NCBI RefSeq assembly: GCF_024521635.1
Contig: NW_026250425.1
Span: forward strand, 310,001 to 374,000
Direction: 5' to 3'
DNA: 64,000 bases
Origin: Tricharina praecox
Taxonomy: Eukaryota
The position numbers were made by a program, and so were the translations under genes. This document shows, piece by piece, positions 1,880 to 34,486 of this stretch; positions within the stretch are counted from its first letter, which is position 1; every line of letters begins with the position of its first letter. Below the pieces are notes generated by a model, which had not been told where the DNA came from, made no database searches, and saw nothing but the letters and a program-made list of their open reading frames with translations.

Positions 1880-3300
1880 AAGTCGTGGAGAAGAGTCGAG
1901 CCCGAGTGATCGTGAGCGACTGAGATCAATACTGCGGAATTACCAACTTGCCTACCTTCATCACGTTCCGGTTGTCGCCGGGCTTCTGTAGTCTATTGTA
2001 TGCACACGGAGCGCAGGTTCACACACGTGGACATCAAAGTCCAAACTCGTGCCCGGATGCATTGGGCTGTACAATAGGGCGACGGATAGAGCGATGGGAT
2101 ACCTGGTATTCGTTTGAACTTTGTGGATTCGGTTCGCCAGGCTACAGCAGTAAGGGCTTCGCGGGGGGGAGTATGGCACTGGGGGAAGGTTGAAAGCGCA
2201 GTGGATGCGGGGAGCCCCGACAAGCGGAGGGTGCGGCTGGGTGATCTGGGTGATTATAGTAGGGGAAACCCGATGCCTAAGTACCTACCGTACTACCGTA
2301 CTACCGTATCGCTGGAGCCTGATCGTCTGCACCTTGCGATCATAGCGGATCACGCTCCTTACGTCGTCCTCCTCCATCTTGGCTGGAGTATGTACAGTGC
2401 AGTAGTAAAAAAAGTGGGGGTTTATCGGTAAGTATGGAGGCAGGACCAGAGCCAGGACTAGAGCCCTGCGGCAGTAGAATAAATCCCGGTAATCCCAATC
2501 CAAAAACGGCGAAATCTTTACGAGGAGCATTTAAATGAGTGTACTGTGAAAAGTAATTCCCATTGCCATGTCGGTATGATAGCGACAGATGTGAATTGAA
2601 TCATCCTGTTGTTTGATCTTGGTCGCCCTATGTAGTATGGCAGCATGTTGGCATTCAAATGAATGCGTCTTCGCACAACTCGCACAACCTTACTAGGTAG
2701 ATCGATACAGTAACCAAATGGGATTTTCTACTCGTCAACAGACAAGACAGGATTACGTGCTATGCGCAGGCAATGGATACAGTAGCAAAAAGTGGGGTGC
2801 GACTTCTTCCGCAGGTCATGAGTAGAACCACCGTATAGGTAGGTAGAAACCCAGCAGTTCTCCGCAACTGCAGATTTATTTTGAGATTTCTTTCTTCCCG
2901 TAGTCCCAACTCTACAGTATCAAAAGTCTTTACGTAGGGTTGTTAAGATATGCATACTAAAAAGTGGGAAGAACCACTGCAGTTCTTCCAGACGCAAAAT
3001 CTTACGTGGTGTTGGGAATACCAGAGACATACCAGTACTACTACCTTGTATGCACAACAACGTAGTGCAGAGAGCACGTTGTCATGTCTCCCAAATAGGG
3101 AGGTTCTGTAAAATCTTCTGCTCGCCAACGTCAACGTAACAGAGGTAAACAGCAGGCTAGCTGGTGCTAGTGGGTGGTCGCAGGTGCACCGAAAAACGGA
3201 GGTTCTGTGAATTCTGTGCTTGCAATTCTGTGCTTGTGAACGGAACCGTGAACCGAACTTTAGTGGCAGCGGCGCCGGCCAAATTTTCTTTGCCACAGCC

Positions 3301-3418: not shown

Positions 3419-4125
3419 TTACACCCAGCAAGCAGGCAACATACCTCAGGCATATGGGAATACATTGGTATCGCTGTTGGTTATCATCAACCGTTACTAT
3501 TGTAATAAAGTACACTGGGAAAGTACTATACCACTCGACCAAAAGGTATTTGGATGGCTGAAGGCCATCATCCCAGTAGCTACTTAAGGCAAGGATTTCT
3601 GAACCGTGACACGGGTTACCTTCCCTCGAGATATGAACCCACAAAGAGCTTCTTGCAAGTGGTATCGAAAATAGATGCGGAATCTGATTAAATTGGAATC
3701 TTCATATGCACAGGATTAGTACTAGGTTTACTCTAACTGCAAGAAAAAAAATATATCCCTTGTAGACATGGTGTAAATTTGATGTCAGTTTCTACCTGTG
3801 TTTTGCCACGGTATAGTACTATAGTTACCAAAGAGCTCCCTAGTGCGGGGTAGTCACGGGACTACAGGTAGCTACCACTACTGCCGTCCAGACGCGCTCG
3901 CGAGTCTGAGTCGTGACCCTGTTCCTTTCACGTCACCCCCCGAACAATATTTAGAAGGCAAGGGATGACTGGGGCAATAACCCTACCCTCGCTGCACCCT
4001 TCATCTCAACGCTCAATCACTCCGCCCTCCCTCCCTCACCTGCCACTGGTGATCGTGGGGCACCATCAATTGCAACAACGTTTCTCTAGCCCACTGCGAA
4101 AGTAGAAGACAAGAGTGAAAGCAAG

Positions 4126-8656: not shown

Positions 8657-11498
8657 TTAATGTCTCCACCTCGGCTTCCCATCCGGTCCCATGATCGCTC
8701 CGAACGGCAGGCTCATCCTCTTGCTCCCGGGTGACGTTGGTCTCGGCAACATGCTGCTCCTGCGGCCGCTGGCACTGCTGAGACGACCGCTAGCCATGGC
8801 GCTAGCGGGACGCACATTTATGCTTGGACTTCCCGGCGTGCTAGGGTGGTGGTGGTCGTTCGAATCGAACGGCGTGGGCGTTCCCTGGCGAAGTCTGCCG
8901 GAGCTAGCTTGGTGTCGTAGGCGGGGGTCTAGTGGTCGGGCTCGGTGAGACGAGGGTAGCCGTTGGTGCGTCTGCTCGATGCCGGGGAGTAGAGGCCGTT
9001 GCGGAGGTGACTGGGCGACCCAGGCGATGGCGTGTTTTCCTGACTGAGTGGGCTCGGCATCGGGATTCGTGATCCGAGCGACGACGAGTTGCGACGGCTG
9101 GCGGCCGTAGGAGGTGCCACCTTGCGGTACGGAGAGGGTGTCGTGAGCGTCAGCGGCTTGAAGTTGTGGCCGATCGAGCCGTCCTCCACTTTGTTGCTCA
9201 CGTTCCACCGAGGGTCGCGACGGTTTGATGTCGGACGTACGAGACGAGGCGTACGACGCATACGAAGCGTATGAGCCAGCAGCGCTGGGACTCGAGATGG
9301 AGCGGCCCATCGACATTGAGGAGTAGGGATTTGAATTTCCCCACGGCGATGTTGGTGGCGTAGACGAGGCGGACGAGTGGCGGCCACTGCGCCTAGCAGG
9401 GCTTCCACCGATAGAGCTCCCGGGACGTCGTATCGGAGCGGGAGACCGTTTGCGTTCTTGGCCTCGAGGTTTTGAAGGATTGAGCTGGACCGAACTTGCC
9501 GGAGAGCTACCGGGGGTGTTTCTGCCCGAAGTGATATCGAGGGACGCAAGCGAGGAGATGGAGTCGCGCAACGCTTGCGTGTCCAATTGTAGGTCCAAGA
9601 GCGTCTGATCGAGCTCTCCCATCTGGTCCTCGAGGTATCGCCAGCGCATCCGCAGCGACGCATCGAGTCGGATGATCTCGCCGTTGACGGTAAATCGATC
9701 ATTGATTCCCTTGCCGATGATCGAGAACGTCCGTTGGATTGCACTTCCTATAAGAAAAACGCACCGTCAGAAAAAATTCCTGCGGTCGCGAAAAAGCTCA
9801 GAGCCGCGCGCGCGCCAACGAACCGTTAATGCATCTTCTTCGCCTCGTAGTTTTCCATCTTCTTCTGAAGATCCCGCTCGGCCCGACCACCGCTCTCTTC
9901 CCACGCAATCACCGATTCCTTGAGTTTGTGCATGCTCCTGTCTATCGAATCGAGCATCTGTGTCGCCTGCTTGCCAGCATTGCGGAAGATGGCGACCCAC
10001 CTATCCTCGCCCAATTCCTTCTTAAGGCTATCGGCGTCGCCGTTCAGCTTCTTCCACTTCCGTTCCAACTGCTTCCGCCTCGATTCCAGCTCGTCGCATT
10101 GCCGTGGGGAAGATATCCTGTGCCCTCGACTGGAAGCTCTGCAGTCTCATGGGTAGAAAGTCCAAGCTGGCGCGCAACGGCTGCATCCTGGCGAACAGGC
10201 CGAGCAGCGAGCTGTCCTCGATCTCTGTGGCCGTCTTGCCGTTGGCTACGGGGAACATTCCGGGGTTCTCCTCCATGATGGTCTCCAGCGTGTCGATATC
10301 CACCGACCCTCCTGCTGCTGGCGCCCCGTTCTCACCCATCATCGACCGATGTCGCTTCTCCTCGAGCTCGAACACCAAAGTCTGGCACGCATCCAGTTCG
10401 GCTTGTATGTCCTGAAGTATGGTCGTCCACAACTCGGTCCACTCCATGGCGGTCTCCACCTGGTCCTTAACGCCCTTGAGCAGTTCCTCGATCGATCGCC
10501 ATCCGTCGACGGTGGCCTCGGTGGTGCTGACGAGATCCACAAGGGTCTGAGAGTCGAGTTCATCGCTATCGGGCCGACGTTGTAGCTCATCGATAAGCTC
10601 GACGTAGACGTTGATGAGACCCGAAAACTTCCGTACGGCGATATCGACCTCGTTGAGCGATTCCCGTCCCTGAGCTGCCCATTCGACATCATCCTCGGCG
10701 TCGAGACCCGTCAGTACCTTTTTCGCGGTATCGATCCATCGGCCGATCTGGCTCCCCGCGCTCATGAGCGCGTCACACATGTCTGCCGAGGTAGCCAGCT
10801 TGCAGATACGGTCCTTGAGATCCTCACTCAACGGTAGTGATAAGCTCGTAAGTCGGCTGAGTTGGGCGGAAAAAAGAGATCCTCGAAAGCGAATGCACAC
10901 TCGAACGACGCTTCAGGCCTTCTCCTCCCCACGACCCGCCGCCGCCGCCAGACATATACACATTAATATCATCATCCTCGAGACCCGGAAACGCGACTGA
11001 CGTGTCGGCCGGAGGAGTAGTAGGCGTTGTCAGTGGCTGTTGCTGCGTTGCGAACCCCTCATTGGCGCCACAAATACCACCACCACCACCAGCACCCACT
11101 CCGCATGCTGCAGCTGCAACCGCATCGTCCAACAGCGGATGATCTCCGCCACGTTCGTCTTCAATGGGAGTGGGCGGCAGGTCTTTGGCCGGCGGCATCG
11201 ATCGGACGTCGAGATTGGAGGTCGGGATACTCGTCGGCACTTCGATGGCGGACGACACGCCCGAGGCATCCGAGCCCCTGGAGCGCGAGCGATGGCGGCG
11301 GTGCGGCGATGGGCTGGGCGAGAGTCTGCTGTGGTAGTTCCGTTTCTCGGCGTCGGCTTCGAGCATCTTGATTCTTGCGGCGAGGGACGGCGACGGCTTT
11401 CGCGTTCTGACTCCGTTCGTCGAGGTTGTGTTGATTGTTGTTAAGGGAGTTGGCCTTGGGTCCGAGATCCGGCCGCGTGTGTTTTCCTCCTCGCTCAT
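8657..11498 (-). CDS. KAR9: KAR9-family cortical microtubule-capture/karyogamy protein; reading frame broken by several apparent 1-bp insertions
   Basis: Motifs LFARMQPLRASLDFLPMRL, KKELGEDRWVAIFRNAGKQA, DRFTVNGEIIRL, TPGSSPASSV and PRWN...GHNFKPLTLTTPSPY are spread over different frames. Intron 9748..9823. The frame is restored by removing single bases at about 10870-10875, 10099-10100, 9826-9827 and 9212-9214. Confidence 0.85.
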
Positions 11499-14400
11499 GA
11501 TAGGGATGTTGGGGGGGTCGGTACGTGCGTTCGTATGTAGGGAGAGTGTGGGTAGGGCGACTTTCCACTCGTAGGGGTAAAGTTGCCTCCTACTAGTTTG
11601 CTCTAGAGTACGGTCTCAGTACAGTTGAGTTTACCGGTCGACGGGGGTTTTTGGTAGGGTCGCGCAGTAGGCGGGAGTAAGCAGCTGGGCTGGACTAGGG
11701 ATCGTGGGTTCGTCGAGTACTATGATTGAGAATGGGATGCGCTGAGCAAGAAGGTGGTGGTGAGAGAGGGTTGGATGGAGGATGGAGAGGGAGGTTGGGC
11801 GCGAGAGGAGTTGGTTGGTTCGATGCTGGCGCTGGATGGAGGTTTCGAGGAGCGGATTGGGCGGGAAACTAGGGGGAGGGGGGGAGTTGGAGGAAGGGAG
11901 GGATGTGGATGGGAGTGGGATGGGTGTGGGTTACGTGGGCACCGGAACGTGTTGATGTCAATGGTTTTTTTTTTTTGAGGTGTGGGTTGTGTTGATCTTG
12001 TGAGTTGTTTTGTTTTAGAAGAGGAGGAGCGCGACTCGCGAGGCGGAGAAGAGGGTGGAAGAGGAGAAGGAGAGAGATCGGAGGGTGTTTTGGAAAAGAA
12101 TAACTGCGATCGAATACGGTACGGAGACGGAGTAACTCTATCGGAGATGCTACGAGAGTATCTGCAACATGTTCTTCTTTTCTCCTTCGGTCTTTTTGTT
12201 TTTGTTTTCCTGCTGTTTCTGCACGTCCGTTCCCTTGTTTGTCTAGGAAGCGACTCTGTGGCGCTGCTGCTTCCGATAAATATGATGTTCCGCTTCTTCC
12301 CTTTCTCTCCGTGTTTCGGGAAGAAATGGAATGCTGTTCGACGTCGATAGTAGAGAAGTGTTCAGTGAGGTGGTGGTGTGGATCAGTATTACTATTATTA
12401 TTTCTTATTATGGCGCTTTGTTTGTTGAGGAAACGTCGTCAGTCGGAGGATCGAGGGGAGGAAACAAAACAAAATTCTGCAGAGAAGCACGACAGAAGGG
12501 TGAGAACAAGAAGAAGGGTGTGGTGGAGGAAGTGGAGGAAGTGGAGGTGGTGGTTGGTGATGTGTTGTCAGATAAAATCCAGAGCAGCCATCCACACTCT
12601 CCTGAACCGGAATTCCCCAGCCGAAAGAAAGAAAGAGAGAGAAAAAACGAAGCCTCTTTGCTTCTCCCAAGTTGACTGAGAAGTTAGAACTCCCTCCTGC
12701 TCCTTCCTGTTTCCTCGTTCGCCAGAATCGCCAGATTCGCGTTCTAGGGTGAAGTTGGACTTGGCTGGCCATTCCCTTCGTTGGGCGTTGGTCCGTCCAT
12801 CCATCCATCCTTCTCTGCAGCTCTGCAGGACTGGCTTGCCGCTGCCAGAGTCCCAGCCCAGCCCAACCTCTCCAAAATCCCGCATGTGCCCATCACCACC
12901 CATAACCAACGATGGATACCTCCTCTACTCGTTCCTCTCTCTGCACATCTCTACGCACATCACACAAGTATCATACCAGTACTCACTCTACTTACATAAA
13001 CTACCAGCCATCTCCAACAGAACAGCGAACGGCTCGTGAGTTGAGTTGAGTTGCGACGGAGGCTGCTGGAATAAAGCGACCGCTTTGACTCCAACCCGCC
13101 CCCCAAGAATAATCTCCCCCCTTCCCCCTGATTCCCCGAACAAACTTCACTAGCAGATCCTCCTGGTCCTTCTATGCAACTACTCTACATAACATAACTG
13201 CTCCAGCAGACGTATGTAGGTGCGGAAATGAACTTCTCCCTCCTCCCTCTGCCTCACTCGCTAGAGAATAGCAACTACGAGCCAGTCTTCGGTTGCCCTG
13301 CCTTAGCTATGGTATGATATGTACTCCACCCCACTCCACTCCATAGTACAGTACTCTAGGTAGTTAGCGGACTGTCACGACGACGGCGACTCCTGTACGC
13401 ACTGCAGGATGACGATGCGCCGGTGCGGCTGTTAGCATGCGTACATCGGCCGTCCGATGCAAGGACGAATCTCAAATTTTGACAAGCAAGTTGCGGCTCC
13501 GAGCCTCCAATTCTTTCTTTCTCTGTGGCTTTCCATTCACGGGCTTCCCGTTTCGCTTCGTTCGTTTCGGCCCGGTTCGTTTTGTTGTGGGGCGAGATGT
13601 GAAACCCCCGTTCTCTCTTTCGTGGGGGCCGGACGGACCGGGGGCAGGGCGGGGAGGGTGGAAGGGTGGCTCAGGGAGGGGACGGGGGTAAGACGTCAGC
13701 CCTGTTTCGTAACTCCTTCTTGCTTGTGTGATGTATGATGTATGGATGGAAGGATGGATGGGAACTTGGGACAGCTTGGGAACTTGGGAAGCATCGATGG
13801 CGATCTACATATGCGTCGCAACTATTAGTACTCTACTGGGTATGAGTACGGACGGACAAGGAGGATACCTGTTCTTTTCTCCAGACTCCAGGTTCTCGCC
13901 ATGGTCTGGATAACGGATGGATGGATAGTTGGTTGCCGTACGGCGTACGCGTGTTGCGTTCTGTTGTTCGTAGCCACCCGTGGTTATCGGATCATCTAAA
14001 TCGCACGGCTGCGATTGATTTGATTGACTGTAGATGGTAGATAAGATGATCTGATTCGATTAGATACTCACTCCTTGATGTTGCTAGTCGATGACGTGAA
14101 CTTGACCGCACACATCACCTTCCATGATGGCAGGAAAGGTCGGGTTTGTGGTTGCCATAGTTGAGCAAGGCCGTATGCGATAACAAAAGTTCCATTCAGG
14201 ACGACCGTGAGGAGAACGAAGCTCCTGCGCACGTCGGTCTGAATGCCGAGGGGCGAAGACTTCACGGCGACGGTTCGGGACGGAGCTGGGGGCGGAATCG
14301 GCATTGGACGGACAGAAAGCTACTGCCGGACCGTTACGGTACACAAGCATCGCGAAGGTTTAGGACAACCGTCGAGAACTGGGCTGCTATGCAGCGAAGG

Positions 14401-15950
14401 GACGCAGAGAAGACGAGAAGAAGCTTTCCTCTTGTTGTATTTCCTAGGGAGAAGGCAGCTAAAGCCGTTCTTCTCACCGAATGTCACTTCAAAGTTCATC
14501 ATAGGGCCACGCGTTGTTTAGTCCAGGTGCGGCCGAAGCTTCAAGCAATCAGGCGATCGTCTGCAGTGAAACTGGTGTCTTGGACGATGGAATTCGCAGT
14601 TACGATGAACTGAACGGCACCCACCTGGATCCGTCTACACATGCCTCCAACTAACCCTTTGATCATCAGAGAAGTCCATTCCAGGGCTTCTTCAAACTAG
14701 GTATGGGGAGTTGTTTAGGTGCAGGCGGTTGAAAGAGCTTCTTGCACACGGCTCGGTGCTGCAAAACTGTATATAGTTGCCGTGGAGGTTTTCTTTCGTA
14801 AGATATGTACCTACTGCCTACTCGGGGTGAACCAGCCAAATCGATTCCTAGCTACGCTCCACATGTGCGGAATGAAACACAACCGTAGGCACCAATAAGG
14901 ATGGGACGGTCTGCCTTGCCGAATCAAGAGAGAGAGAGAGAGAGAGAACATCAATTTATTGTCGCATGCCCTTGCCGAATCGAAGGTGACACAAGTTACA
15001 GCATCAAAGTGATGACCGAGTGACCCACCATGCTTAACTTCGACCATAACCGTATAACGCTCCATCCCTTCCTCCCTCCCCTTCTCCGCCACGACGTAGG
15101 TATGTACCAACACGCCACTTGTCGATGGGCGGTGCGGAAGTATGATCGTACGGACGGGATGTGGAGAGAGAGAAGGAAACAAGAGATTGAATTGACCGAG
15201 TACTTGGTTGAGAAACAAAAAGAGCGGACAACATAGGTGGACAGTTTATATACGACGAGAAAAACAAGAAATGATGTACTATTGGACGACAGCTACCCTC
15301 CCAAAATCCCGAGCTCTTCCCTTCCCTCATTGCGCATAACCGTTGCGATATTCATTGCGAATGTCCATTGCGAATGGTCATTGCGTGTCCTAGGTAATTC
15401 ACTTTTCCCACATTACTTGTCCTGGCTTTTGAGTTCGCCAGGCTGTGACGACGTAACTTTCTTCACCACTTACCGCTCATGCAGAAGTAAAGGTCCGCAG
15501 AAAAAACGTTCGTTTCACTGCGAGGGCACTCGCGGCGTGGTAAATGCTTTCCATCAACAGCTCTATAGTAGGCTCTTCTCACTGGAAGCTGAGACTCTGA
15601 AGAAATGCTACTGAACATAGCAGTTCGAGCCCGACTTGTGTTGACAGGTGGGTTACGAGTGCCATAGAGAAAGGCTGACAGATGGGCGAGCTTAGTGGGA
15701 AATACCCAAAAGCGGCCGCCTGCAGGTTTACATATCAGAGTAGCCTGGCCCTTCTCTCGTCTCTCTCTCTCCCACTGTCTCTCTGTCCATACTCCCATCA
15801 CCCTTCACACTCCCCACTACTCCTCCTTCCACTACGATTTTGCACCTGATCATCCAGGCTTTTGCTCCTGATCATCCAGGCTTTTGCTCCTCAATCTTCA
15901 GTTCGTGAAGTTTTTGCTCTCCCTCACCACCACCACTGCCAGATTCCAAA

Positions 15951-17009
15951 ATGCACCTCCTCCTCCTCCCGCTACTGTTCCCAGCCTTGATCAACTCCAT
16001 TGCGATCCCGGACTCAGACACCTCCCCCGTCGTCCCCGAGCTCCTCGCTGGACAGGACGATAACTTCATCCTAGCCTACAGCAGCATGTCCGTCCCCACC
16101 ACGAACGCCGGCGCTTTCGTCGTCCCTCGTGCAGAGGAGCTTGCAGGTGTGAGTATCGCCACCACTACCCTCGCTGGCGGGACGCAGGCGTGGGTCTGTA
16201 CCCCCGCCGCCACTCCTCAGTCTCATCCTGTTCCTGTTCCCGTCGATGGCCCAGCTGCCACTGCTGCCACTGCTGCTGCCGATGCTGCCGTCCCGCTCAC
16301 TACCGTTGCTCCTGCTCCCGCAGTCAAGCGTTGCGACTGCGCTGGTGCACGGGGAGGAGATAAGCTCACCACCATTGCTCCTGCTCCCGCAGTTAAGCGT
16401 TGCGACTGCGCTGGTGCCGGGGGAGGAGATACGCGTTGCAGCTGTACACAATGCAACTGCACGAATTGCAGCTGCACACGTTGCGGGGGAAAAGCTAAGC
16501 GTTGCAACCGCACTCGCGGCGAGGGAGACGAAGTTGTCGAAGTCGACGAAGGAGTCGAAGACGAGTCGGGAGAGCAGGGGGAAGCAGACGACAAGCAAGA
16601 GCTCCTCGCCGAGTTCCGAGACTTCTTTTTGGGGGTCAAGGGACTTTCCACACAGTTTACGGACGCGGAGAAGTATAGAACGGCGCTGGTCGAGGATCTG
16701 GGCGTGGATCTGCCAACGATGGTCACGCCGACGCCGTTTATGACACTCGAGAAGAGGTCTCTCACGGAGGGGCCGCAGCCGACGATTGTTGTGGAGGGCG
16801 TTACTTATACTCGTGCGGCTGCTGAGACAACTGATCGTGCGGCGGAGAAGGTGAAGGTTCCGGTAAGTTGTGTGTTTGTGATTAGTAGTGGTGGCAGTAG
16901 CTGATATACCTAGGGGTTACAACAGCTTGATCTGGTCCGGGACTGTTTCTTGGATTTGGAGGAGGCCCTGGAGTTCGTCAGGGCGAGAGTTAGCGAAGAG
17001 GATGAGTAG
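15951..17009 (+). CDS. Secreted precursor with Kex2-type KR sites and a metallothionein-like Cys-rich peptide
   Basis: Hydrophobic N-terminus MHLLLLPLLFPALINSIA. 69-bp internal duplication (LTT[V/I]APAPAVKRCDCAGA[R/G]GGD). Intron 16863..16913 (GTAAGT..CTGAT..TAG) joins a last exon GLQQLDL...VSEEDE, stop TAG 17007-17009. Confidence 0.8.
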
Positions 17010-17065
17010 CCTGGGAAGGAGTCGTAGCCCGGGAAAGTTCATTGTTTCAGACCGGCGATTGATGG

Positions 17066-17225
17066 ATTATGATACCGACGAGGCTTTTGATAACTGTTTA
17101 TTATGAGTGGATTATTGAGAGGACTGGTGGGATTGATGGCTTGCTTTATGATCATACCGACAAGGCTTTTGATAACTGTTTTATTATGGGTGGATTATTG
17201 GGAGGACTGGTGGGATTGATGACTG
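17066..17225. repeat. About 80-bp tandem duplication 3' of the secreted-protein gene
   Basis: ATACCGAC[G/A]AGGCTTTTGATAACTG...GAGGACTGGTGGGATTGATG occurs twice. Confidence 0.9.
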
Positions 17226-18243
17226 TAGGATAAATTACATTAACTAGAAGGGAGAAGCTGGTATTTGTCCTGTCACGAAACACAACGACTGATGATGTTC
17301 CATGGGTGACATCTCATGTCCCACTATCACGTGCCAATATTCTCCACCTCCAACCGAGCAAAATAATTCCTAAAGAACTCCCGAAACAAAATCTCCAACG
17401 CTTACTCTCGGCGGGCACGACGATGACCCCCAATCCCAAGCCCATTCCCATTCCCATTACCTATTATATTTGCTTCGGAATTCGGGGCGACGATAGGGCC
17501 CGCCCAGACCCGGACGGCGGAGAGGGGGGGTGTCAGACGTACGTAAAGAGGCGCGGCTTCGATTACCTCTAAGTGACAGCGGAGCCGAACGGGGGACACC
17601 GGGACGCCCCACCTACCTCTAAGTGTTAGACCCGATGCCGACACCGGGTCTCGTGGCATGCGCGGCCTGCGGCCTGCCGTTAAGTGTTAGATCGGTCGGG
17701 AGGCTTTCAGGCTTTTCGCTGCGTTGCACTGCGTTGCGGGGCGGGTAGATGCGGCGAGCTCCGATAGGTAAACGTGTGGTGGGGTTTCAGATAGCTGGCT
17801 GGCTGCGCGAAAGCTACTCTAGCTACGGACACCTAGCTAGAGCTGTGCGGGATCGTGATGGGCTTCGGGAAGACACTCTGCTCGAGTATAAGAATGCCCA
17901 CTCTCCTCCTCCTCGAGTGGGCGATTGGAATTTCTTCTTTGACGCCCCAAGCTGAGACACATATCATACCTATCGCCTTTATCCTCATCACCACCACCAC
18001 TACCACCACTACCACGGACGTCATACAGTCCAGGGATTGGCTATCTGTCCTCCTCCCTACCCGCACCCCACATACATATAGTGCTCAGGAACCTTCAACG
18101 ATAAAGGGTCCTACACACATACCGTACTCCATTGCCTCCTCCGCCGCACCGTTTTTTTTATTTTTTTATTTTTGGCAGCAGCTGCTTTCTCTTTCTCTTT
18201 CTCCTTCCAAATAAACCTCCCGTCCATCCATCCATCCTCCACC

Positions 18244-19360
18244 ATGTCCTCAATCTTCAACCGCTACCTAGGGAAGGAGCACCACCTGGGCGTGGTAGCC
18301 GTCGGCTTCTCCGGCGGACAGGTTCGCCTTCCTCGCTCCCCTCCTCCGCTCGTAGTACTGACGCCTCTAGGGCAAATCCGGCGTCGACGCCGCACCGCAA
18401 GCCCTAATCGACGCGGGGCTTTTGACGGCACTGCACGACGACCTCTCGTACACGATCCACCACGACGGGGTCGTGCACTCGTACACCGAATACATGCCCT
18501 CCTCCGACCCGCCACTGCACGTAGCGGGGGCCAGCAAGCCCATGCTGCGACCCGTCACAGTTTCCAACGTGACGCAGGCGTTGTCCATGCAAGTGTACGA
18601 GCACGCGCGGGAGGGGAGGCTAGTGCTCACGCTCGGTGGGGACCACAGCATTGCGGTTGGAAGCATCAGCGGGACTGCGAAGGCGGTTCGGGAGCGGCTC
18701 GGGAAGGAGATCGCCGTGATATGGGTTGACGCCCACGCCGATATCAACACGCCACATTCCTCCGGAAGCGGGAATATTCACGGCATGCCCGTGGCGTTTC
18801 TCGCGGGGTTCGCAGAAGCCCCACGGGAGAACCCGGATGTCTTCGGGTGGCTCACTGAGGAGCATAGGATCAACCCCAAGAAGCTTGTCTATATCGGCCT
18901 CAGAGACGTTGATCTCGGCGAGAAGAAGATCCTCAGGGAGAATGGCATCAAGGCGTTTAGCATGCACGACGTGGATCGACATGGTATCGGAAAGGTCATG
19001 GAGATGGCACTCGAGTATGTCGGCGACTCCCCGATACACCTGAGCTTTGACGTGGATGCGTTGGATCCAATGTGGGCGCCGAGTACGGGGACGCCCGTTA
19101 GAGGCGGATTGACGCTGCGTGAGGGCGACTTTATCTGCGAGTGCGTGCATGAGTCTGGCGCGCTGGTGGCGATGGATCTAGTATGTTGCTTCTTTGTCGT
19201 TTTCTTTTTCTTGGGATGTGAGGATTGATGCTGATAATCGGGATCGCAGGTCGAGGTCAACCCACATATCAACGAACAGGGGAGCCCGTACGCTGTGGGA
19301 GAGACTGTTAGGGCCGGTTGCTCACTGGTGCGGTGTGCGCTGGGAGAGAGCTTGCTGTGA
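18244..19360 (+). CDS. CAR1: Arginase
   Basis: Introns 18322..18370 and 19181..19249. Mn-binding motifs GGDHS, DAHADINT, SGNIHGMP and SFDVDALDP, plus TGTPVRGGL and a terminal VEVNP exon. Confidence 0.97.
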
Positions 19361-20011
19361 GTGAGTAGTGGTGGTGGTGGATTGTGGATTATCAGTGGGA
19401 GAGCGCTTGCTGTGAGTGAGTGGGCAGTGGTGGACCGTGGATTGTGGATTATCAGTGGGAAAGGGCTTTCCTTTGTGTCAATAGAGTCGAGTCCGAGTAC
19501 GGCATTACCAACGGCGCATTAAGACTTGCTGATTCACATGATTCATATGATATCAACCGATCTCTTCTTTTTTGTCGTCTCAGTCGGTTGCCGTCCGAGT
19601 GAATTTGAGTCTTGGATGCCTGGTGCCAACGAGTTCCTCGATATGTGTTGAAGTGAATGGCCACTCGTGAGGCCCATTCTGCTACTGACTTAACCTAGGT
19701 GTGTAATTGACCCACATCACCATCCCTTTCTACTCTACTTCCAAGCTCACGCAACACCCAGCATCGACCCCACTCATCCCTCGACGAGCCCTGCAAACTA
19801 GGTAGTGGCACCGTAAAGATTGAGTACCGAGTCGTCGACACCTCCACCTCACACGGTACACCACCACTACCACCACCACCACCACCACCACCACCACGAT
19901 CCAACTCGCAGGAGCAGGAGCAGGAGAGAAGTAATTCGTGTATACATTAATCATGTCCAATAAAGACAAAGACCACCATTACCCTCACCCGCCCATCCTT
20001 CCACATCTGCA

Positions 20012-23745: not shown

Positions 23746-24653
23746 TTACACCTTCGTTGGGATCCCTCCGCTCGCCTTACTACCAAAGATGCTCATGATG
23801 CCAAACACGCTGTAGAACAGCGCGAGCGGGTAGGCGACCAGCCACCTCATCTCGCGCACGCCCAGGACGCCGACAAACATATTGCTGGCGGCATAGGTGC
23901 TCCAAGCGATCGCGGCGACGCTGACGGTGTAGCCGACTAAACCGTCGAGCGGGTAAGCGACGCCGAGACCGCTGGTGAAAACGAGCGGGAGCAGACAGTA
24001 GCCCAGCACCGACGCGGACCGGATGTAGTTGAGCGAGTGCGTGGGCGGCGACATCAGGTTGAGTAGCAGGTGCAGTGACACCGAGCCCATCAATGCCACC
24101 CCGTAGATGTACCCGAAGTGCACCTTGCCCGATAGTAGCAGGAACGTGCCGAACGCGAGGCAGAACATGATCGGTCCCGCTACGTCGCTGTCGTCCATCA
24201 TGTGCTGGTCCACGGTCTGGAGGGGGTTGAGAACTGCCAGCGTCTATAATTCCGTGGTGTCAGCGCCGAGGGGGAAGGGGGAGGTGGGGGGTCCAATAGC
24301 GGGAGGTGGGGGGTGGAACCAACCTTTCCCTTGATGTGCCGAAAATTGACACCGAGCTCCTCCAGCAGCGGCGGTTCATCATCGTAGCCACCAGTCCCGA
24401 ACGCTGCCAACCAGCCCATCGTCAAACCACCACGTTCACCCGCGACACCTCCGGTCGTGGTCGTGGTCCCAATGCTGCCCATGCTGCCCATGCTCCCCAT
24501 CCCCCCAAACCCGCCGTATCCCTGAGCTGGGGTTGTGTGCCCGCTCACCCCGCCGTGTCCGCCATACGAGGATTGGTAGAATTGCAGGTTTTGTGGCGAC
24601 TGCGGTGCGCCGTAGCCGCTTTGTTGTGGCGGCGGGGAGAAGAACTGCGCCAT
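23746..24653 (-). CDS. YIP1: Yip1-domain ER-Golgi transport protein
   Basis: GWLAAFGTGGYDDEPPLLEELGVNF, then intron 24244..24323, then TLAVLNP..MDDSDVAGP..SVLGYCLLPLV..LVAYPLALFY. Confidence 0.95.
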
Positions 24654-25154
24654 GTGTTGTGTTTGTCGGCGTACGGTGATGTGCTGTGATGTGGCGCCTG
24701 TAGCTAGCTGGTTGCGCGTTGTTGATGGGCGTTCGTAAAGACTGTGGTCGTCGTGGTGATAGTCGATAGCTTGGCCGATGGTAACTAACTAACGGGACGT
24801 GTCGTGGTGTGTGTATTATTGTGCAATGTGCTGTAGCTGTAGCTGTTCGTTTGAATGGCGATGGCGATGATGATGATGATGTGTTCACGCTGGCTGGGTT
24901 ACCTCACAACGCCGACCGCATGCGTCGCACCCAGTTAACCCAAACTTCACGCTACCCGGCTGGGCCACGTGACCTTGCAACCTGCAAGGTGTCCGGAATT
25001 CGGGACAGTTGCTCTCTCACTAGGTAACTTTTTGCCGGCCGAGCTACCTAACTACCGTATCGCTCTAGTTAGCTCCAGGAACCCACCTACCTCACACCTC
25101 ACACCTCACTCGCACTTGCACCCACGATCCCACGATTCAACGAGCACGAGCACA

Positions 25155-25836
25155 ATGTCATCACGGTTCGCCCCTCCTCCGCCGCTCCCCACTTACCTTT
25201 TGTACCCCCCAGCTAACACCCCCAGCTACGGCCCCACCCTCCACGCGCGCGAGCGCGACCCCTACGACCGGCAGCGCTCGGAGCTCCTGGGGCAGCAGCC
25301 GGCGGCGCAGCAGCAGGCGTACGGGCGGTACTCGCCCGCCATCGGCGGGGGCGTGGGCGGAGGAGGCGGGTACGGCTACGCGAGCACCAGCGACCGTGTT
25401 CCCAGCCCAGCGTACCGCGCGGCGACGCCGAACCGTAAGGGCCAGTACTCGGCCTCGGTCATGGAGGAGCTCGAGGCGCAGAATGATGATGCCGTCGAGG
25501 GCCTCAGCAAGAAGGTGCGCATGCTGAAGGATGTAAGTATACTCTACTCTACTCTACTCTACTCTACATTGTGGGAAGGAGGGGAAGGGGAAGGGGAAGG
25601 GGAAGGGGCTAATGGTGGTGGTGGCGGGGTAGATTACGGTGGCGATTGGCGAGGAGGTGCGTAGCTCGACTACGCTTATGGAGGCGATGAATGAGAGCTT
25701 CGAGGGCACGCGTGAGAAGCTGCAGGGGACCATGAAGAATATGCTGCGCATGGCGCGGAGGACCGGAGTGGGCTGGAAGGCGTGGATCGCTTTCTTTGCG
25801 GCTCTGGTGGTGCTGTTCTGGTGGGTGTGGATCTGA
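25155..25836 (+). CDS. BET1: Qc-SNARE of the Bet1/Sft1 type
   Basis: Introns 25166..25225 and 25533..25632. SNARE motif ELEAQNDDAVEGLSKKVRMLKDITVAIGEEVR and a C-terminal TM anchor. Confidence 0.9.
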
Positions 25837-26439
25837 CGAGTTGATCCAGGACGGTTGACTGCAGTGCCATATTGTAGGTGGACGGGTGGGTGTGGGTGTA
25901 ATATATGTTGGTGGAATTGGTGACTTAGTCTTTTTATTGGTTTCTCATCACTTGGGTTTTATGGTTGGATTTTGTTGCGGCTTTTTAGTTTAACTGCTTT
26001 CTTTTTGAGTGCCGATTGTAACGATACGAATGATTTAATGGTACATCGCATTGCAATACATGATTAGGAGGTGCATTCTGCAGGCATGTAGGCTTAAAAT
26101 CTGAAGAAATGCGTTGACCGGACAGCTTGATATGGTATCATGTGAAATTACTCATTGTACAGACCATCAAGAATCTATGGTCATCTACGCTTCCGTAAGC
26201 CAGATCACGTGTCGTCGACCCAGACTTCAAGGTCGGGAGCATTTCAGACACTCCAGCTTCTATTACTCTCGCCACGCTTCGCCGTCACATTTCTCAGAGA
26301 AAAAAAACATTCATGATGTCATTGAGCATTCAATATCATCCCAGAACCGCATCTCTTCGCACTCCCTTCCATGGGTGTAATGTACACTTGCGGTTATCGA
26401 AATCAAACAGAAAGAAATTACAACAAAACCAATGCCAGC

Positions 26440-29400
26440 CTACGCGTCGGTAACTCTACCACCAACCTTACGCAGAGCACCTCCCAGCTTCCTTCCCGCC
26501 TGCTTACGCCTTCTGCGGTCCTCGACAACCTCCTCGAGATCATCCTCTTCGACGAGAACCATCACCGGAGTGGGTGCGGAAACACCATAGGCCATCCTCC
26601 TAACCGGAGTCTCCACCTCCCTCTCCGGAGTACTGGTACTGAAGCTGCGTCCAGGAGTAGACGACGAACTCCTGGCCCTGCTGCCCTGTCTCCTGCGTCT
26701 AAGCTTCTCCTCGAGGTATTCGACATCCCTGTTCTTCTTCTCCGCCATCGCCGTGAGCTTGAGGATTGTGGTGCGGACGCCTTCGACGGTGGGAGGCTGG
26801 TATTTGGCCCGGGTTCGGTGACGGTCACGCGCAGCAATCTTCGCTTTGAAGAGCGTCGCCTTGTACTCAGCGTCCTTGAGCGCCTTTTCGACGCGGCTAA
26901 ACGACTTGCGCAGGGTACGCTGCTGAATCTGCTGCTCGGGGGCGAGGAGGCGGGCTCTGGCGTGAGCGGCAGCGGTTGGATCGTTGTGGACGGAGAACAG
27001 ACGTTTGATCTCAGACTCTTTGGTATTGACTGCAGAAAGGTCAGCAAGAACATAATGTAATAGGATGGCGAAATCTTACGCTTGATGAATCCCCTGGTAG
27101 CACACTGTCGCCTCTCCTCCAGCTTGGGGGTCGTACTAGCGATCTTCTGCACCTCCAATTCCAAGTCGGCAATAGTCTTGGTCACTATCGCCAACTCGCC
27201 CAAGCGCCAGTTGTCGGTAGGCTTCATGTCCTCAGGTTTCTCGTGTGTGACACCCTCGGCCGGGGTCTGCTGTGCGAGGTGGTAAGACTGAAGACCACGA
27301 GCCATCTGACCGAGTTTATTGACCATCATATTGCCAGAAATCAAGAGTGCGTCAAAAGCAGTAGTGAAATCCTTCACGACAGTAATTAGAGCCCAATTAA
27401 AAAACGACAGGAACATAAACTCACGTTGACATCATTGAACTTGGTGAGCTTCTTTATTTCCGGGATTGTGACTGACGGCTTGACTGGACCATTGCACAGC
27501 TGCTCACGGATCTTTTCGTCCTCATGGTCGCTGTATTCCGCATCGAAGTCCACGACACTCTCTGCGTCGTCCTCTTCCTCCTCTGGCTCTGGCTCTTCCT
27601 CCTTCGATATTGATGCGTTCAATAGCGAGGCGATCGCCGCCGAGTTGATAGGCTTTGGGTTGACAGGTCTCGATGACTTGACATTCTTGTGCGCCAAACT
27701 TCCCAGACTTCCCAGACTTCCCAGACTTCCCAGACTTCCCAGACTTCCCAGACTTCCCAGACTTCCCAGACTTCCCAGGCTTCCATGGCTTCCCAAACCG
27801 CCCATACCGCCCATGCCCTTGGACTGTAGCGGCACTTTACCGCGTAACTGCCTCGCCGGAAGAGGGGCCTCCTCTTCCTCGTCCTCCTCATCTTCGTCTT
27901 CCTCATCGTCGTCATTCTCACTCTGAATGTCTTCCTGCTTCTTGCTAAACAAGCTGCTGAAAGGAGCATCTTTTGAGAAATTGCTGGATGAGAAAGGCTT
28001 AAAGCTTCCAGAGTTGCTAAAGATCGAGCCAGATCCAGATCCAGGCGTTGTCGCTTTTGCAGCAGGTGGGGTGGCGCCAAAAGCAGCGGGCGTTTTGGAG
28101 GCGGTGCCAAAAAGACCGGTCGCCTTAGGGGTGGCCTCAGAAGGAACAGGCGTTTTAGGGGCGGCCCCAGAAGGAACGGCCGCCTTAGGGGTCTCGGCAG
28201 AAGACTTCTCCTCTTCTTTCTTGAACTCTTCCTTGATCGGAGTTTTGGGTGCCTCGTTCTCTTTTCCTGCCTCCTCCTCATTTTCCTCGTCTTCATACTC
28301 TCCTTCTTCCTCTTCACCTTCTCCCTCCTCTTCGTCGCCTTCGTCCTCGTACTCCTCTTCTTCTTCGTCCTCTTCCTCCTCGTCGCCTTCCTCCTCTTCC
28401 TGTCCTTCATCGTCTGCACCATCTGAGTCATTGTCTTCAGGCAGAGCGGGTGGCAGCTCTGGCGGAGTTATCTGGGATGGTGCCGAGAAGTCTGGCGGAA
28501 GCGGTGCCTCCTCAGCAGCTAGAGATCCCGGTTCTGAGCTGTCGTCCGAATCATCATCGGAGTCGGGAACAGTAATCGACTTCTGCGCAAACGGATTGGC
28601 TCCGGATGAACTTGCACCAGCAGGCTTGCCTCCAAATGGATTCGTACTGGTATTACCCGTACTGGCAGGCTTCAAGCTAGCGAAAGGTGATGCGGTGGAA
28701 CTGCTGCCGAAAGAAGCGAAGGGTGAAGGCGAGGCGGGAGCAGCAGAGCCGAATGGATTTCCAGCAGCGGGCTTTGACGCTCCCATCCCAGCGAAGGGGG
28801 AGGGCGAGGATTGCCCAGCATTAGCAAATGCCGAAGAAATTGATGCGTTGCCAAAGGCCGATGGCTTGCTTGGTGTAGTAAATGGCGAACCTGTACCTCT
28901 AAAGGCTGACGTATCGAAAGCATTACCGGATGCGGATACGTTAGAACCGCTACCGCCTCCAAGTGCACCTCCAAGGGCAGAGCCAAAGCTTCCCAAAGAG
29001 CCACCGTTGTCTGGATTGCCAGACTTGCCATCATCGGCAGATGGAGTTGCTTGGTCTTTGAATACACTCCCCAATTTGAATCCGCTTGCCGTGGGCGTCG
29101 CGGGTTGGGTGGTCTTGGCTGCTCCAAAAGCTGAGTCGGTATTGCCGCTGGTTACAATAGGTTTACCGCTGCCAAAGGGGCTTCCGCCTTGCGGGACGTT
29201 GGATGCCTGCGCAGCAGCGGCAAAGCCGCCCTTATTCGCAAAAGATGCAAATGCGCTGCCACTGCCGAATGTTGCCGGTGACGCAGATCCCATTACCGGT
29301 GCCTTTCCAAAGGGTGACGCAGGACTGGGTGAGCCAAATGCCGAAGCTTGTCCGAATGCCGGTCTGCCAAATGCGGGTGCAGGGCTATTGACACCCAACG

Positions 29401-31398
29401 CAGATGGTTGCCCAAACGCCGGAGCAGCGGAAGCAGTGGATTTTGGGGTACTGGGAGGCTGTGGTGTAGTTCCCCATGGGGAAGGCTTTGCTCCAAATGC
29501 TGGAGCAGGACTGCCAAATGCTGGAGCGGAACTATTAGCACCCAACGCTGATGGTTGACCGAACGCCGGGCCGGTAGTAGTGGCACCCAACGCTGATGGT
29601 TGGCCGAAAGCCGGGGCAGTAGTAGTGGCTATTGATTTCGGAGCACTTGGGGGTTGTTGCGCGCTACCCCATGGGGAGGCTTGTGCGAATGGGGAGGCTT
29701 GACCAAAAGCAGTTCCGGAGGTCGTTGAGGGTATCGACTGTGAGAATGGTGAGGCTGCCGGCGCTGAGGGTCCAAACGCTGATGTCGCCGCAGCAAACGG
29801 GCTTGGTGTAGGTTTCGCTCCGAACGAGCTCTGCCCGAAAGCAGGCTTAGGAACTGTTGAAAATGCGCTTGCAGTCTGTGGTGCCGGGATAGCTGCTTGT
29901 GGTGGCTGTTGTGCTGGAGTCTGCTCGGTATCGTAAATCATCATCCCGGTGTACTTCTCTCCTTTTTTGATGGCATCGTTGTAGACCACGTGCCATGCAC
30001 ACAGAGTACCCTCATGGTTCAACACCATTAGGATTGGGAGTGGCCCTGGTGACTCGGTTTCGCCGCCTTCCGTGGGGCGGGTTACATTGTCCTTGCTGCT
30101 GAGGTCGAGGGCCATCCCGATTGGGGATGTATCCATGAAAGTCGGTTTTGACAACGGCAACTGCGCCTGCCGTGTCTCATCCAGGATCGCAACCGTCACA
30201 AAGGTATCTGCCTTGATATCCTTAGTATCCTCTTTGAATCTCATGATAACACCAACGTCGCCGGAGCATGTTCCAGAATAAATGATGGCATTCTTGAGTG
30301 CTGGTTCGTATTGCTGCAGTTGTGCTGTGAAGAAATATGGCGGGGATCGCTCCCTCATTCCGAACGGGGGTGCCGGAGCAGCAAGCTTCTTAAAATGAAA
30401 TAAGCCTGAAGAACGCGTAAGGAGGTGAAAGACGGATTCGTCATCGCCCGGTACTCCATCCGTCGGTAAAGGCGTGTGTGTGATTATGAATACGTTGTTC
30501 TCAATCCAAAGGATGGATGACACGAAACAGTTCTCCACGCCAGGTGGTGCCGGAAGCTCCGCCTTGCCTTCGCCGTCGGGGGTCATCTGATATCCGGTTC
30601 CGTTGCCCATTCCGCAGATAAGCTGTTTTCCCTGCTTGCTCCACGCAATCGTTCCGACTCCCTCCTTGAGGATGATGTTTCCATCTCGCGTTGTCTTGAA
30701 ACTCCTAGTGTTTAGATCCAGGATCCGGACGTCTCCTTTCATCGTGACAATAGCCACCATCTCCGGCACTGTGGGGTTCGGCTTGACTTCTCGCAGCTCC
30801 AACCCATCGGTCCCCACTTCGAATGTAGCCTTCGCATCACCGCCGCCCGCGAGCGCATCTATCGAGTATACGGCCAGTCCTCCCTGAGAAGCTCCGAGGA
30901 TGAGATGCGATTCATCAGCATTAAACGCGATGTGCGATATGCTGATGGGCGAGGGCATGGTGAGCTGTGGTGTGTAGTCTCCTCCATCTTGTGCGAGCGC
31001 TTCCCGCAGAGATGCCGTCGATCCTATGACGAAACCTAGAAACCCCATTACTCTCCATATCTTACTTGGATAACGAGCGACTTACTCTTTGGGCCCGCCG
31101 CCGCAAAGAGACCGCGTCGGTTTGCGATGGTGAAAAGCGACGAGCACGAGCGTGGCAGCGAGTCTGGAGAGAAACCCTCAGGAAGGAGCTTGAGTCTCGG
31201 CTCCTTCGTGAGACCCTTGAACCCGAAGTTCTGCGCACCAGACAGTTAGACAGGTCAGTGCCACCCACAAATCGTCGAGCAGTGACATACCTCGATCTCA
31301 CCGCCATTAGTCGTGAGATCTAGATCTTCGAGTTGAATCTGTATATCCCCGACCGGCTGGGAGTTGGCTAGTACTCCGTAGGGATTGCCGGACGCCAT
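26440..31398 (-). CDS. NUP159: FG-nucleoporin Nup159/Nup214 orthologue
   Basis: ATG 31398, introns 31231..31290 and 31036..31085, plus two more near 27372-27425 and 27030-27080. N-terminal beta-propeller (DTSPIGMALDL, LMVLNHEGTLCAW), PAFG/SPFG FG repeats, acidic linker, and C-terminal coiled coil (PTVEGVRTTILKLTAMAEKKNRDVEYLE). Confidence 0.93.
27709..27795. repeat. Coding 9-bp repeat (CTTCCCAGA)n encoding (GSL)n inside NUP159
   Basis: About nine tandem copies are directly visible. Confidence 0.92.
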
Positions 31399-32847: not shown

Positions 32848-34486
32848 TCACGGCAGCTTGAATCCACCCTTTGACAACTTCTGGAAGACGCCGGTGGGGT
32901 CGTACTTCTTCGCCACGACCTTCAAGAACTTAACGTTCGCCTCGCCGTAGCTCTCAATGATCTTCTGGCCCTCGCCCGCATCATTGAGGAACATGTAGTC
33001 ATAGTAAAGGCCCCTCTTCTTGGCCATGACCTCGATATCCGCAATGAGCTTAGTCGTAGAACCGATCACCGTCTCGTCATATGCAGCGTCGCTCCACGAG
33101 CTTGTGATGTCGAGCCACGTCTGCGCTTCCTCCTTGACGCCGAGGACGTTGCCGCCCATCTTCTTACCGTGGCGGACGGTGGAGACGGCCATGGGCTGGT
33201 AGGTGAGTGTTACTTGAAGCCCCGGGACGTTGGCGGCCGTGAAGGTCGCGTTGAATTGTGCGAGAACCTCTTTGTACAGCTCGGCATCGACCCCGATGGA
33301 GATGGTACTCATGTGCTGTCTGTATGTTTGAAATCCAGATTAGCATTCTAGACAGGGAGAAAAAAAAAGACATGCGGGGGAATATACCTTCCGGGAGCAG
33401 GTACTCCCTGGCCCGAGTATGCGGCGTTGACGAATTTTGCCAGTGTCGTTCTGTTGGTGGTATCGGACATAGGGCCCAGGGTCTTCCAGTCTTGCAGAGA
33501 CGCGGGATTGTCGGTCTCGGCGTGGAAAAGGAACGACATCCAGATCTGGGTACTGCCGCCGGTGAAGATGGCGTTCTGAATCATAGCCGCTTTCGGATCC
33601 TCGACCTGGTGCTTGTCCTGATACGTCACCAGGGTATCGATGACAGATCCGAACTTGTCGGGAGTGTACGTCGTCAAACCGGCCCAGACACCCTTTGGCT
33701 GCGGAACGGTGTGGAGATCGAAGCGGGTGACGATGCCGAAGTTGTTTCCTCCACCCTTCAGCGCCTTGAAGAGATCCCAGTTCTGCTTCGCCGATGCGGT
33801 GACGACCTTGCCGCTGGCGAGGACGACCTCGAGGCTCTTGATGGTGTCGCACGCCATGCCGTGCGAGGTGGTGTAGAACGAGTTTCCGCCGCCGGTGAGC
33901 AATCCCGCAACACCGACTACGGGTACACGGCCGCCGACTGCAGCGAGGCCGTAGGGCTCAAGGAACTGGTAAACGCTGATCCATCGGTTGCCGGCGCCGA
34001 TGGACACGACCTTCTTTGCCTCGTCGAGTGAAAGAGACGAGAGCTTTTCCATGGCTATCAGGAGGCCACCATCGGAGCTGGCAGCTCCGGGGAAATGCAT
34101 GTGGCCACCGCCCCGAACAGAGAACTCAATGCCGAAATAGGACGTAACTTTTACACCTTTCGAAACCGCGTCGGTGGTGTCCGGGGTGAATATCAGCGCT
34201 GCCGGGAGCCATGCTCTCGTTGACCTGTAGAATTCATCAGCCACTGGAAGCGAGACCTAAGGAGGAAGAACACCCACCAGTTCACTTGTTGAATCGCCGT
34301 GTAGTTTGCACTGTCGGGCCAGAAGGTTAGGTGGGGGAATAAGAGAGACAGTGCCAGCAGTCCGATTGACCCGAAGGCAGCAGCATTTGCAAGAGCGGTA
34401 GAGACTTGAGAAACATCGGACGGGGATAGGCCGAGCTGCGTTACGAAGCTGACGACGGCTTCCGGTGATGCTGTATAGTTCGCCAT
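32848..34486 (-). CDS. FAD-linked oxidoreductase (FAD_binding_4 / berberine-bridge-like)
   Basis: Introns 34225..34277 and 33320..33387. Motifs FSVRGGGH (covalent-FAD His), VGVAGLLTGGG, DLFKALKGGGNNFGIVTRF and the C-terminal FLNDA..YDPTGVFQ..GGFKL. Confidence 0.92.

Follow-up and report, generated by a model that had tools for sequence, protein, structure and literature searches.

A recent repeat insertion probably underlies the metallothionein-like peptide of a putative Kex2-processed precursor in Tricharina praecox

The window, by which we mean the whole stretch of 64,000 nucleotides of Tricharina praecox DNA analysed here, carries a gene that, on the reading we favor and regard as reasonably likely, encodes a secreted precursor of a small family resembling Kex2-processed repeat proteins, with a young cysteine insert that would be either disulfide-bonded, as a cross-link or tether, or a tolerated passenger. 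The piece of the precursor that looks like a metallothionein is probably a recent repeat insertion and not a conserved metal-binding system, and the family itself is probably restricted to Pezizales. The analysis defines a small fungal family with a conserved KR-delimited module that lacks a named family or function assignment, and it shows how the cleavage site of a precursor can itself supply the material for a new, cleavable, cysteine-rich peptide.

Gene structure, expression and precursor layout

The gene, which like all features described for it lies on the plus strand, has two exons and a spliced product of 335 amino acids. Exon 1 (15951..16862, aa 1-304), delimited by its open frame, the splice joint and a donor at the same place in the orthologue, is followed by a 51-nt GT..AG intron with a branch-site-like motif (16863..16913), which interrupts a 317-codon open frame starting at 15951, and by exon 2 (16914..17009, aa 305-335 and the stop codon), which has no Pfam match. 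Contigs from two of three runs, X1 and X2, skip exactly 16863-16913, X3 having contributed no contig; transcription and splicing of the gene on the plus strand are thus evident. Two introns of the adjoining arginase gene are likewise skipped in these contigs, and it is the three GT..AG joints in all that show the contigs to be spliced, X1 and X2 having been taken as RNA by guess and their depth being unsuited to ranking genes. One X1 contig (record 3) spans the cysteine-rich peptide at 16401-16496 with 0 differences; the listed X2 contig pieces leave 16417-16553 uncovered, which carries no weight either way. The transcripts include a 5' leader (15787..15950) with a 22-nt tandem duplication (15838-15881), the contig starts at 15787 and 15792 being no proof of the true start, and, from the contigs and repeat comparison, a 3' untranslated region (17010..17255) with a tandem duplication of ~83 nt (17059-17224). 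On the minus strand, a frame of 281 codons is open across the gene (16074-16916) and looks like a shadow of the real frame.

Two identical copies of the gene were found in the genome, on contigs C21 and C54, and a genome search for paralogues returned none, both matches being this same gene. C54, a 79-kb contig (loci L005 and L006), was compared over 20 kb (window 5539-26006), where it matches the region at 99.4-100% identity, and is probably a redundant haplotig or assembly duplicate.

No other window of the protein is as hydrophobic as the first 19 residues (Kyte-Doolittle 1.98), and the best 19-residue window away from the N-terminus scores 1.17, such that hydropathy gives no transmembrane segment and a putative signal peptide of about aa 1-18 (15951..16004; cleavage site inferred) is the sole strongly hydrophobic segment. 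Leu-rich N-termini are found in all five full-length homologues. Four KR sites, starting at aa 126, 149, 183 and 268, delimit five fragments, and a Kex2-like protease is encoded at one locus in the genome. Between the second and third KR sites lies the cysteine-rich peptide (aa 151-182, 16401..16496), with 9 Cys in 32 residues, and between the third and fourth lies an 85-aa fragment (aa 185-269, 16503..16757) with 22 Asp and Glu residues, in which an acidic spacer is followed by a conserved module, a layout common to the homologues P0002, P0003, P0004, P0008 and P0009. These features suggest that the precursor probably enters the secretory pathway and is probably cut into pieces at KR. The preliminary description of this DNA had already recorded the signal-peptide-like N-terminus, the four dibasic sites, the aromatic-free 32-aa peptide with its 9 Cys and the D/E-rich segment after it, all of which we recovered at the same places; it made no mention of a 91% tandem copy preceding the peptide, of two sequons within it or of the 14 Cys in the whole precursor.

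Le Marquer et al. 2019 (PMC6339444) define KEX2-processed repeat proteins (KEPs) by a signal peptide, no transmembrane segment, at least four fragments at KR or RR sites and at least three similar fragments covering at least 15% of the protein. As in the KEPs described in this and a second paper (PMC6339444, PMC9769878), the precursor combines a putative signal peptide, no membrane segment by hydropathy, five KR-delimited fragments and internal repeats. In contrast to these KEPs, it has two near-identical 23-aa copies (91% at the DNA level) and a diverged third start (a further junction at 77%) instead of three clear cores, and its conserved module is single and without Pfam match or named family. 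Judged by its sequence, the precursor is therefore KEP-like and agrees with part of the published definition. Its relative P0008, with three KR-flanked copies of one module, is closer to the KEPs of that paper, and would fit as a good KEP candidate (compare P0004) and a better entry point to the family. On the reading we favor, the protein would fold after entry into the ER, Kex2 would cleave its KR sites in the Golgi, and the functional, ancestral product would be the released acidic and module fragment at aa 185-269.

Homologues and the conserved KR-delimited module

A protein search yielded seven homologous proteins (P0002-P0006, P0008 and P0009), five of them full-length and one from Wilcoxina mikolae (Pyronemataceae, Pezizales); P0007 (E 1.2e-5), a low-complexity match to a bacterial-type protein, was dropped before counting. 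A metagenome scan added five loci, L008-L012. Three of these, L008-L010, encode P0002, align with the window in the region upstream of the gene (11191-13308), across the gene itself and on through arginase (17257-19378), and have their intron donor at the same place as the window gene; on this comparison P0002 is a true syntenic orthologue, since flanks, gene and donor position all agree. The remaining two, L011 and L012, encode a P0003-like protein and adjoin arginase too. The non-coding stretch 17257-17800 between the gene and arginase also aligns with the orthologous loci, as part of a 72% match. Within the protein, an N-terminal region (aa 1-87, 15951..16211) is common only to the close orthologue (53/81 aligned residues identical, dN/dS 0.30), and aa 270-304 have a dN/dS of about 1 by a crude pairwise estimate.

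All seven homologues share a module of ~60 aa that ends in the fourth KR site (aa 210-269, 16578..16757) and has two predicted helices followed by a Pro/Thr tail. It is 36-78% identical in five relatives, with 14 invariant columns, and its dN/dS against the orthologue is 0.18 (a crude pairwise estimate), which indicates at the sequence level that the module is under purifying selection. Two copies are present in P0003 and P0004 and three in P0008, each acidic-led and closed by a dibasic site. Searches of the module against Pfam, PDB sequences, Foldseek folds and the ESM Atlas gave no usable match. A low-confidence structure model from six sequences (pLDDT 65, pTM 0.29) places helices at 2-27 and 30-40 before an extended tail; the first helix is amphipathic, its hydrophobic moment ranking 2-28 among all 11-mers in 12 of the 12 copies found.

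Deeper relatives point to the cell wall. Just beyond its last dibasic site, L011 matches PF10645 at 27.3 bits (cut-off 25), and P0006 has a weak match below the cut-off (E 0.003). In a glucan-binding protein secreted by a fungus, PF10645 corresponds to the CBM52 module (10.1101/2025.07.03.663104), and these relatives resemble in this respect the CBM52 glucan-binding proteins such as the Magnaporthe GBP, from which the window gene and its close orthologue differ, neither having a CBM52 match in Pfam. Because a CBM52-type glucan-binding domain, or a weak match to one, is present in two deeper relatives, we propose that the fragment would act at the cell wall, where the amphipathic helix of the low-confidence model would most likely bind a membrane or a protein partner; this role is borrowed from those relatives, since the window gene and orthologue lack the match. 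The CBM52-type domain at L011:5461-5874 (and in L012) lies past the annotated gene end and is probably an unannotated second exon.

Origin of the cysteine-rich insert

The cysteine-rich peptide is lineage-specific. The Cys block is absent from all seven homologous proteins, which reach a maximum of 2-4 Cys per 32 aa compared to 9 in the window gene. The orthologue keeps the leader, the first KR, the acidic run, the ~60-aa domain and the last KR and is without the block: 38 residues separate two anchors that are 131 residues apart in the window gene, and its DNA shows a 200-nt gap at the block. Consequently, the two parts of the preliminary description fared differently. Its secreted precursor with KR sites has held up, in that the gene is expressed, the product is probably secreted and the orthologue retains the first KR as well as the last; its extracellular metallothionein fails as a conserved system because the Cys block is missing from the orthologues, the syntenic one included. 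The conservation that it had proposed to check accordingly extends to those two KR sites and not to the Cys spacing. Gain of the block in the lineage of the window gene is the parsimonious reading of this distribution; among the homologues recovered, no close relative showing intermediate states of the insert was found.

The block itself is repetitive. A 69-nt tandem duplication (16295..16432) comprises the first and second KR sites and two C-x-C motifs, its copies (16295-16363 and 16364-16432) being 91% identical with 6 codon differences, 3 of them synonymous and none in Cys or KR codons; the 23 residues preceding the peptide are thus a tandem copy of the peptide's start. A third copy of the KR junction, containing the third KR site (16493..16527), is 77% identical to the second over 35 nt and shares 17 of the 24 nt after the KR codons. 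Four 15-nt units (16431..16490) between the second and third copies encode T-x-C-x-C, the fourth in decayed form. Self-identity there reaches 0.62 (lag 15) and 0.61 (lag 30), other lags giving 0.22-0.32, but in a control with redrawn synonymous codons 744 and 627 of 10000 sequences do as well, such that the periodicity does not clearly exceed what the protein repeat imposes. These units are alike at 8-12 of 15 nt among themselves and at 9-11 of 15 nt to the K-R-C-x-C junction unit, and 11 of 12 Cys codons are TGC. The single junction of the orthologue can be aligned with each of the three copies in the window gene, with 0, 3 and 24 of 2000 codon shuffles scoring as high. Excluding the KR codons leaves a weak similarity (135, 760 and 124 of 2000 shuffles), and for this reason the idea that C-x-C derives from S-x-S of the orthologue is no more than suggestive. 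We infer that the lineage saw two duplications of the first KR junction and, between the resulting copies, the amplification of a 15-nt C-x-C unit.

Whether such an insert does anything is a separate matter. It may be neutral, recent repeat noise in a hypervariable linker, with the extra KR and Cys as functionless by-products, a reading we hold to be unlikely. It would account for an orthologue without the insert, for family linker regions that cannot be aligned, and for a locus that duplicates readily, with tandem copies in both untranslated regions of the gene as well. Furthermore, Cys-rich strings arise easily in the DNA of the window: an off-frame read of the gene's Ala-rich stretch (16184-16333, frame +1; apparently a shadow of the real frame) contains as many as 12 Cys per 32 residues, and a count of at least 8 is reached at two further places. 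The tail motif C-x-C-x-x-C-G-x-K, with 17 occurrences in the genome compared to 12 for a reversed-pattern control, is likewise close to chance level. Twelve free Cys in a secreted protein are, however, unlikely to be inert given what is generally known of ER folding, and the frame and Cys codons were kept through several substitutions: while other codons changed, every Cys codon has been retained in the 69-nt copies and in 15-nt units one to three. This retention could reflect selection for Cys, on small numbers and a pattern chosen after the fact.

Another possible source is a real metallothionein gene or cDNA inserted in frame at a KR site. The start and tail of the peptide do resemble, by eye, the Neurospora peptide as given in PMC4755600, but the start duplicates KR junctions of the gene itself, and protein, DNA and pattern searches of the genome found no donor (2 of 2 matches were the gene itself). 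Of the 17 loci with the tail pattern, 12 were translated, 10 of them among the 15 other than the gene, and none of these looks like a free-standing metallothionein. A short-protein search with the peptide, a weak query at 32 aa and low complexity, gave 0 of 34 candidates at E<=10. We consider such a capture highly improbable.

Metallothionein likeness, metal binding and the neighborhood

A third possibility is that the repeat-born insert was selected de novo to bind Cu(I), Cd or Zn through thiolates, the 32-aa peptide being released by Kex2 as an extracellular chelator. The comparative evidence, beginning with the absence of the insert from every homologue, makes this a minority reading that we hold to be quite improbable. 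In composition the peptide is well suited to it: it is 28% Cys, with gaps of 1,9,1,2,1,2,1 and 2, four C-x-C motifs, small spacers and zero aromatic residues, thus sharing the general metallothionein feature of high Cys in C-x-C without aromatics. It is also cleanly flanked by KR sites and transcribed, and its Cys codons were kept while spacer codons varied. Like the family-8 metallothioneins of Neurospora crassa and Agaricus bisporus, it is a short Gly/Ser/Cys string with C-x-C motifs and a C-x-C-x-x-C-G-x-K tail, and by eye this tail (C-N-C, C-S-C, C-G-x-K) resembles that of the Neurospora protein; moreover, fungal metallothioneins are known to grow by tandem amplification (PMC4755600).

The likeness does not extend to spacing or architecture. 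Both strict and relaxed forms of the 7-Cys family-8 pattern, X2-CXC-X5-CXC-X3-CXC-X2-C-X3 in PMC4755600, fail on the peptide, whose 9 Cys are spaced by gaps of 9, 2, 2 and 2 where family 8 has 7 Cys and gaps of 5, 3 and 2. Family-8 proteins are described there as short free-standing polypeptides (~26 aa) or tandem 7-Cys boxes, whereas the peptide sits inside a precursor of 335 aa whose leader is hydrophobic, carries two N-glycosylation sequons (aa 169 and 172), is unconserved and has no sequence match. Searches with this 32-aa low-complexity query, in which they are weak, gave no Pfam family and no PDB chain at E<=10. The peptide is therefore not a family-8 metallothionein by pattern or architecture, and its metallothionein look appears to be convergent.

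The redox state expected for the insert also bears on thiolate binding. In the secretory pathway, Cys are normally oxidized to disulfides in the ER before Kex2 cleavage in the Golgi. The preliminary description had taken the odd Cys count of the peptide to favor thiolate binding; this argument fails because the whole precursor has 14 Cys, an even number, and disulfides form before Kex2 cuts. On the reading we favor, the 12 Cys so created would most likely form disulfides in the ER, pairing inside the peptide or with the lone Cys at aa 83, 185 and 315. The insert, which may be N-glycosylated, would hold the cut pieces together as a cross-link or tether, or would persist as a tolerated passenger.

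There is a precedent for a secreted Cys-rich chelator in rice CAL1, a defensin-like protein that binds Cd and is like the precursor in being Cys-rich with a signal peptide, but it differs in fold and kingdom and is a single domain on a conserved defensin scaffold without KR release (PMC5811569). Our literature search, which fell short of most subscription journals, found no paper on a fungal metallothionein that is secreted or released by Kex2. Extracellular metal binding by the peptide, if real, would make it a secreted fungal metallothionein and represent a new fungal metal-handling route and a testable convergent origin of a metallothionein by slippage at a Kex2 site, for which the insert-free orthologue is a natural control.

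Upstream sequence and neighboring genes lend the chelator no support. We scanned 14951-15950 for four metal-response motifs and found 0 MRE-like sites and 1 Ace1-like site compared to 1.1 expected. The only enriched motif of the four was TTTGCTC, with 3 sites compared to 0.06-0.09 expected locally. These sites sit in the transcribed leader, two of them within or beside one tandem duplication, none of the three has the final A of the published Mac1 consensus (PMC11563359), and the orthologous region has 1 (L010), 0 (L008) and 0 (L011); we rejected them as copper-response elements. No metal-handling family was present among the 44 frames scanned in window 1-36 kb. The genes identified there are KAR9 (8660-10912, minus), arginase (18244-19517, plus, two introns seen), Yip1 (23749-24243, minus), NUP159/214 (27389-31081, minus) and a FAD-binding protein (33351-34256, minus).

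Precursors of fungal RiPPs (dikaritins) have DUF3328/UstYa or tailoring genes alongside. None was found among the 44 of 60 long frames scanned in window 1-36000, a scan that could miss short exons, and the flanking genes are KAR9 and arginase.

Several further features of the surrounding DNA were recorded. A dispersed element of ~345 nt (15120-15466), ~490 nt upstream of the start codon, has several copies elsewhere at 77-87% identity and internal short direct repeats; no terminal inverted repeat was found in it and no match in the orthologous loci. Two further dispersed repeats, at 2776-3096 and 3501-3611, have many genome copies at 88-97% identity. A 19-nt motif occurs three times between the gene and arginase, at 17562, 17612 and 17673, and may mark arginase regulatory sites. 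Downstream of arginase, L008:7919-9822 and L010:8222-10122 match window 24301-25844 in reverse, which points to a local inversion or rearrangement.
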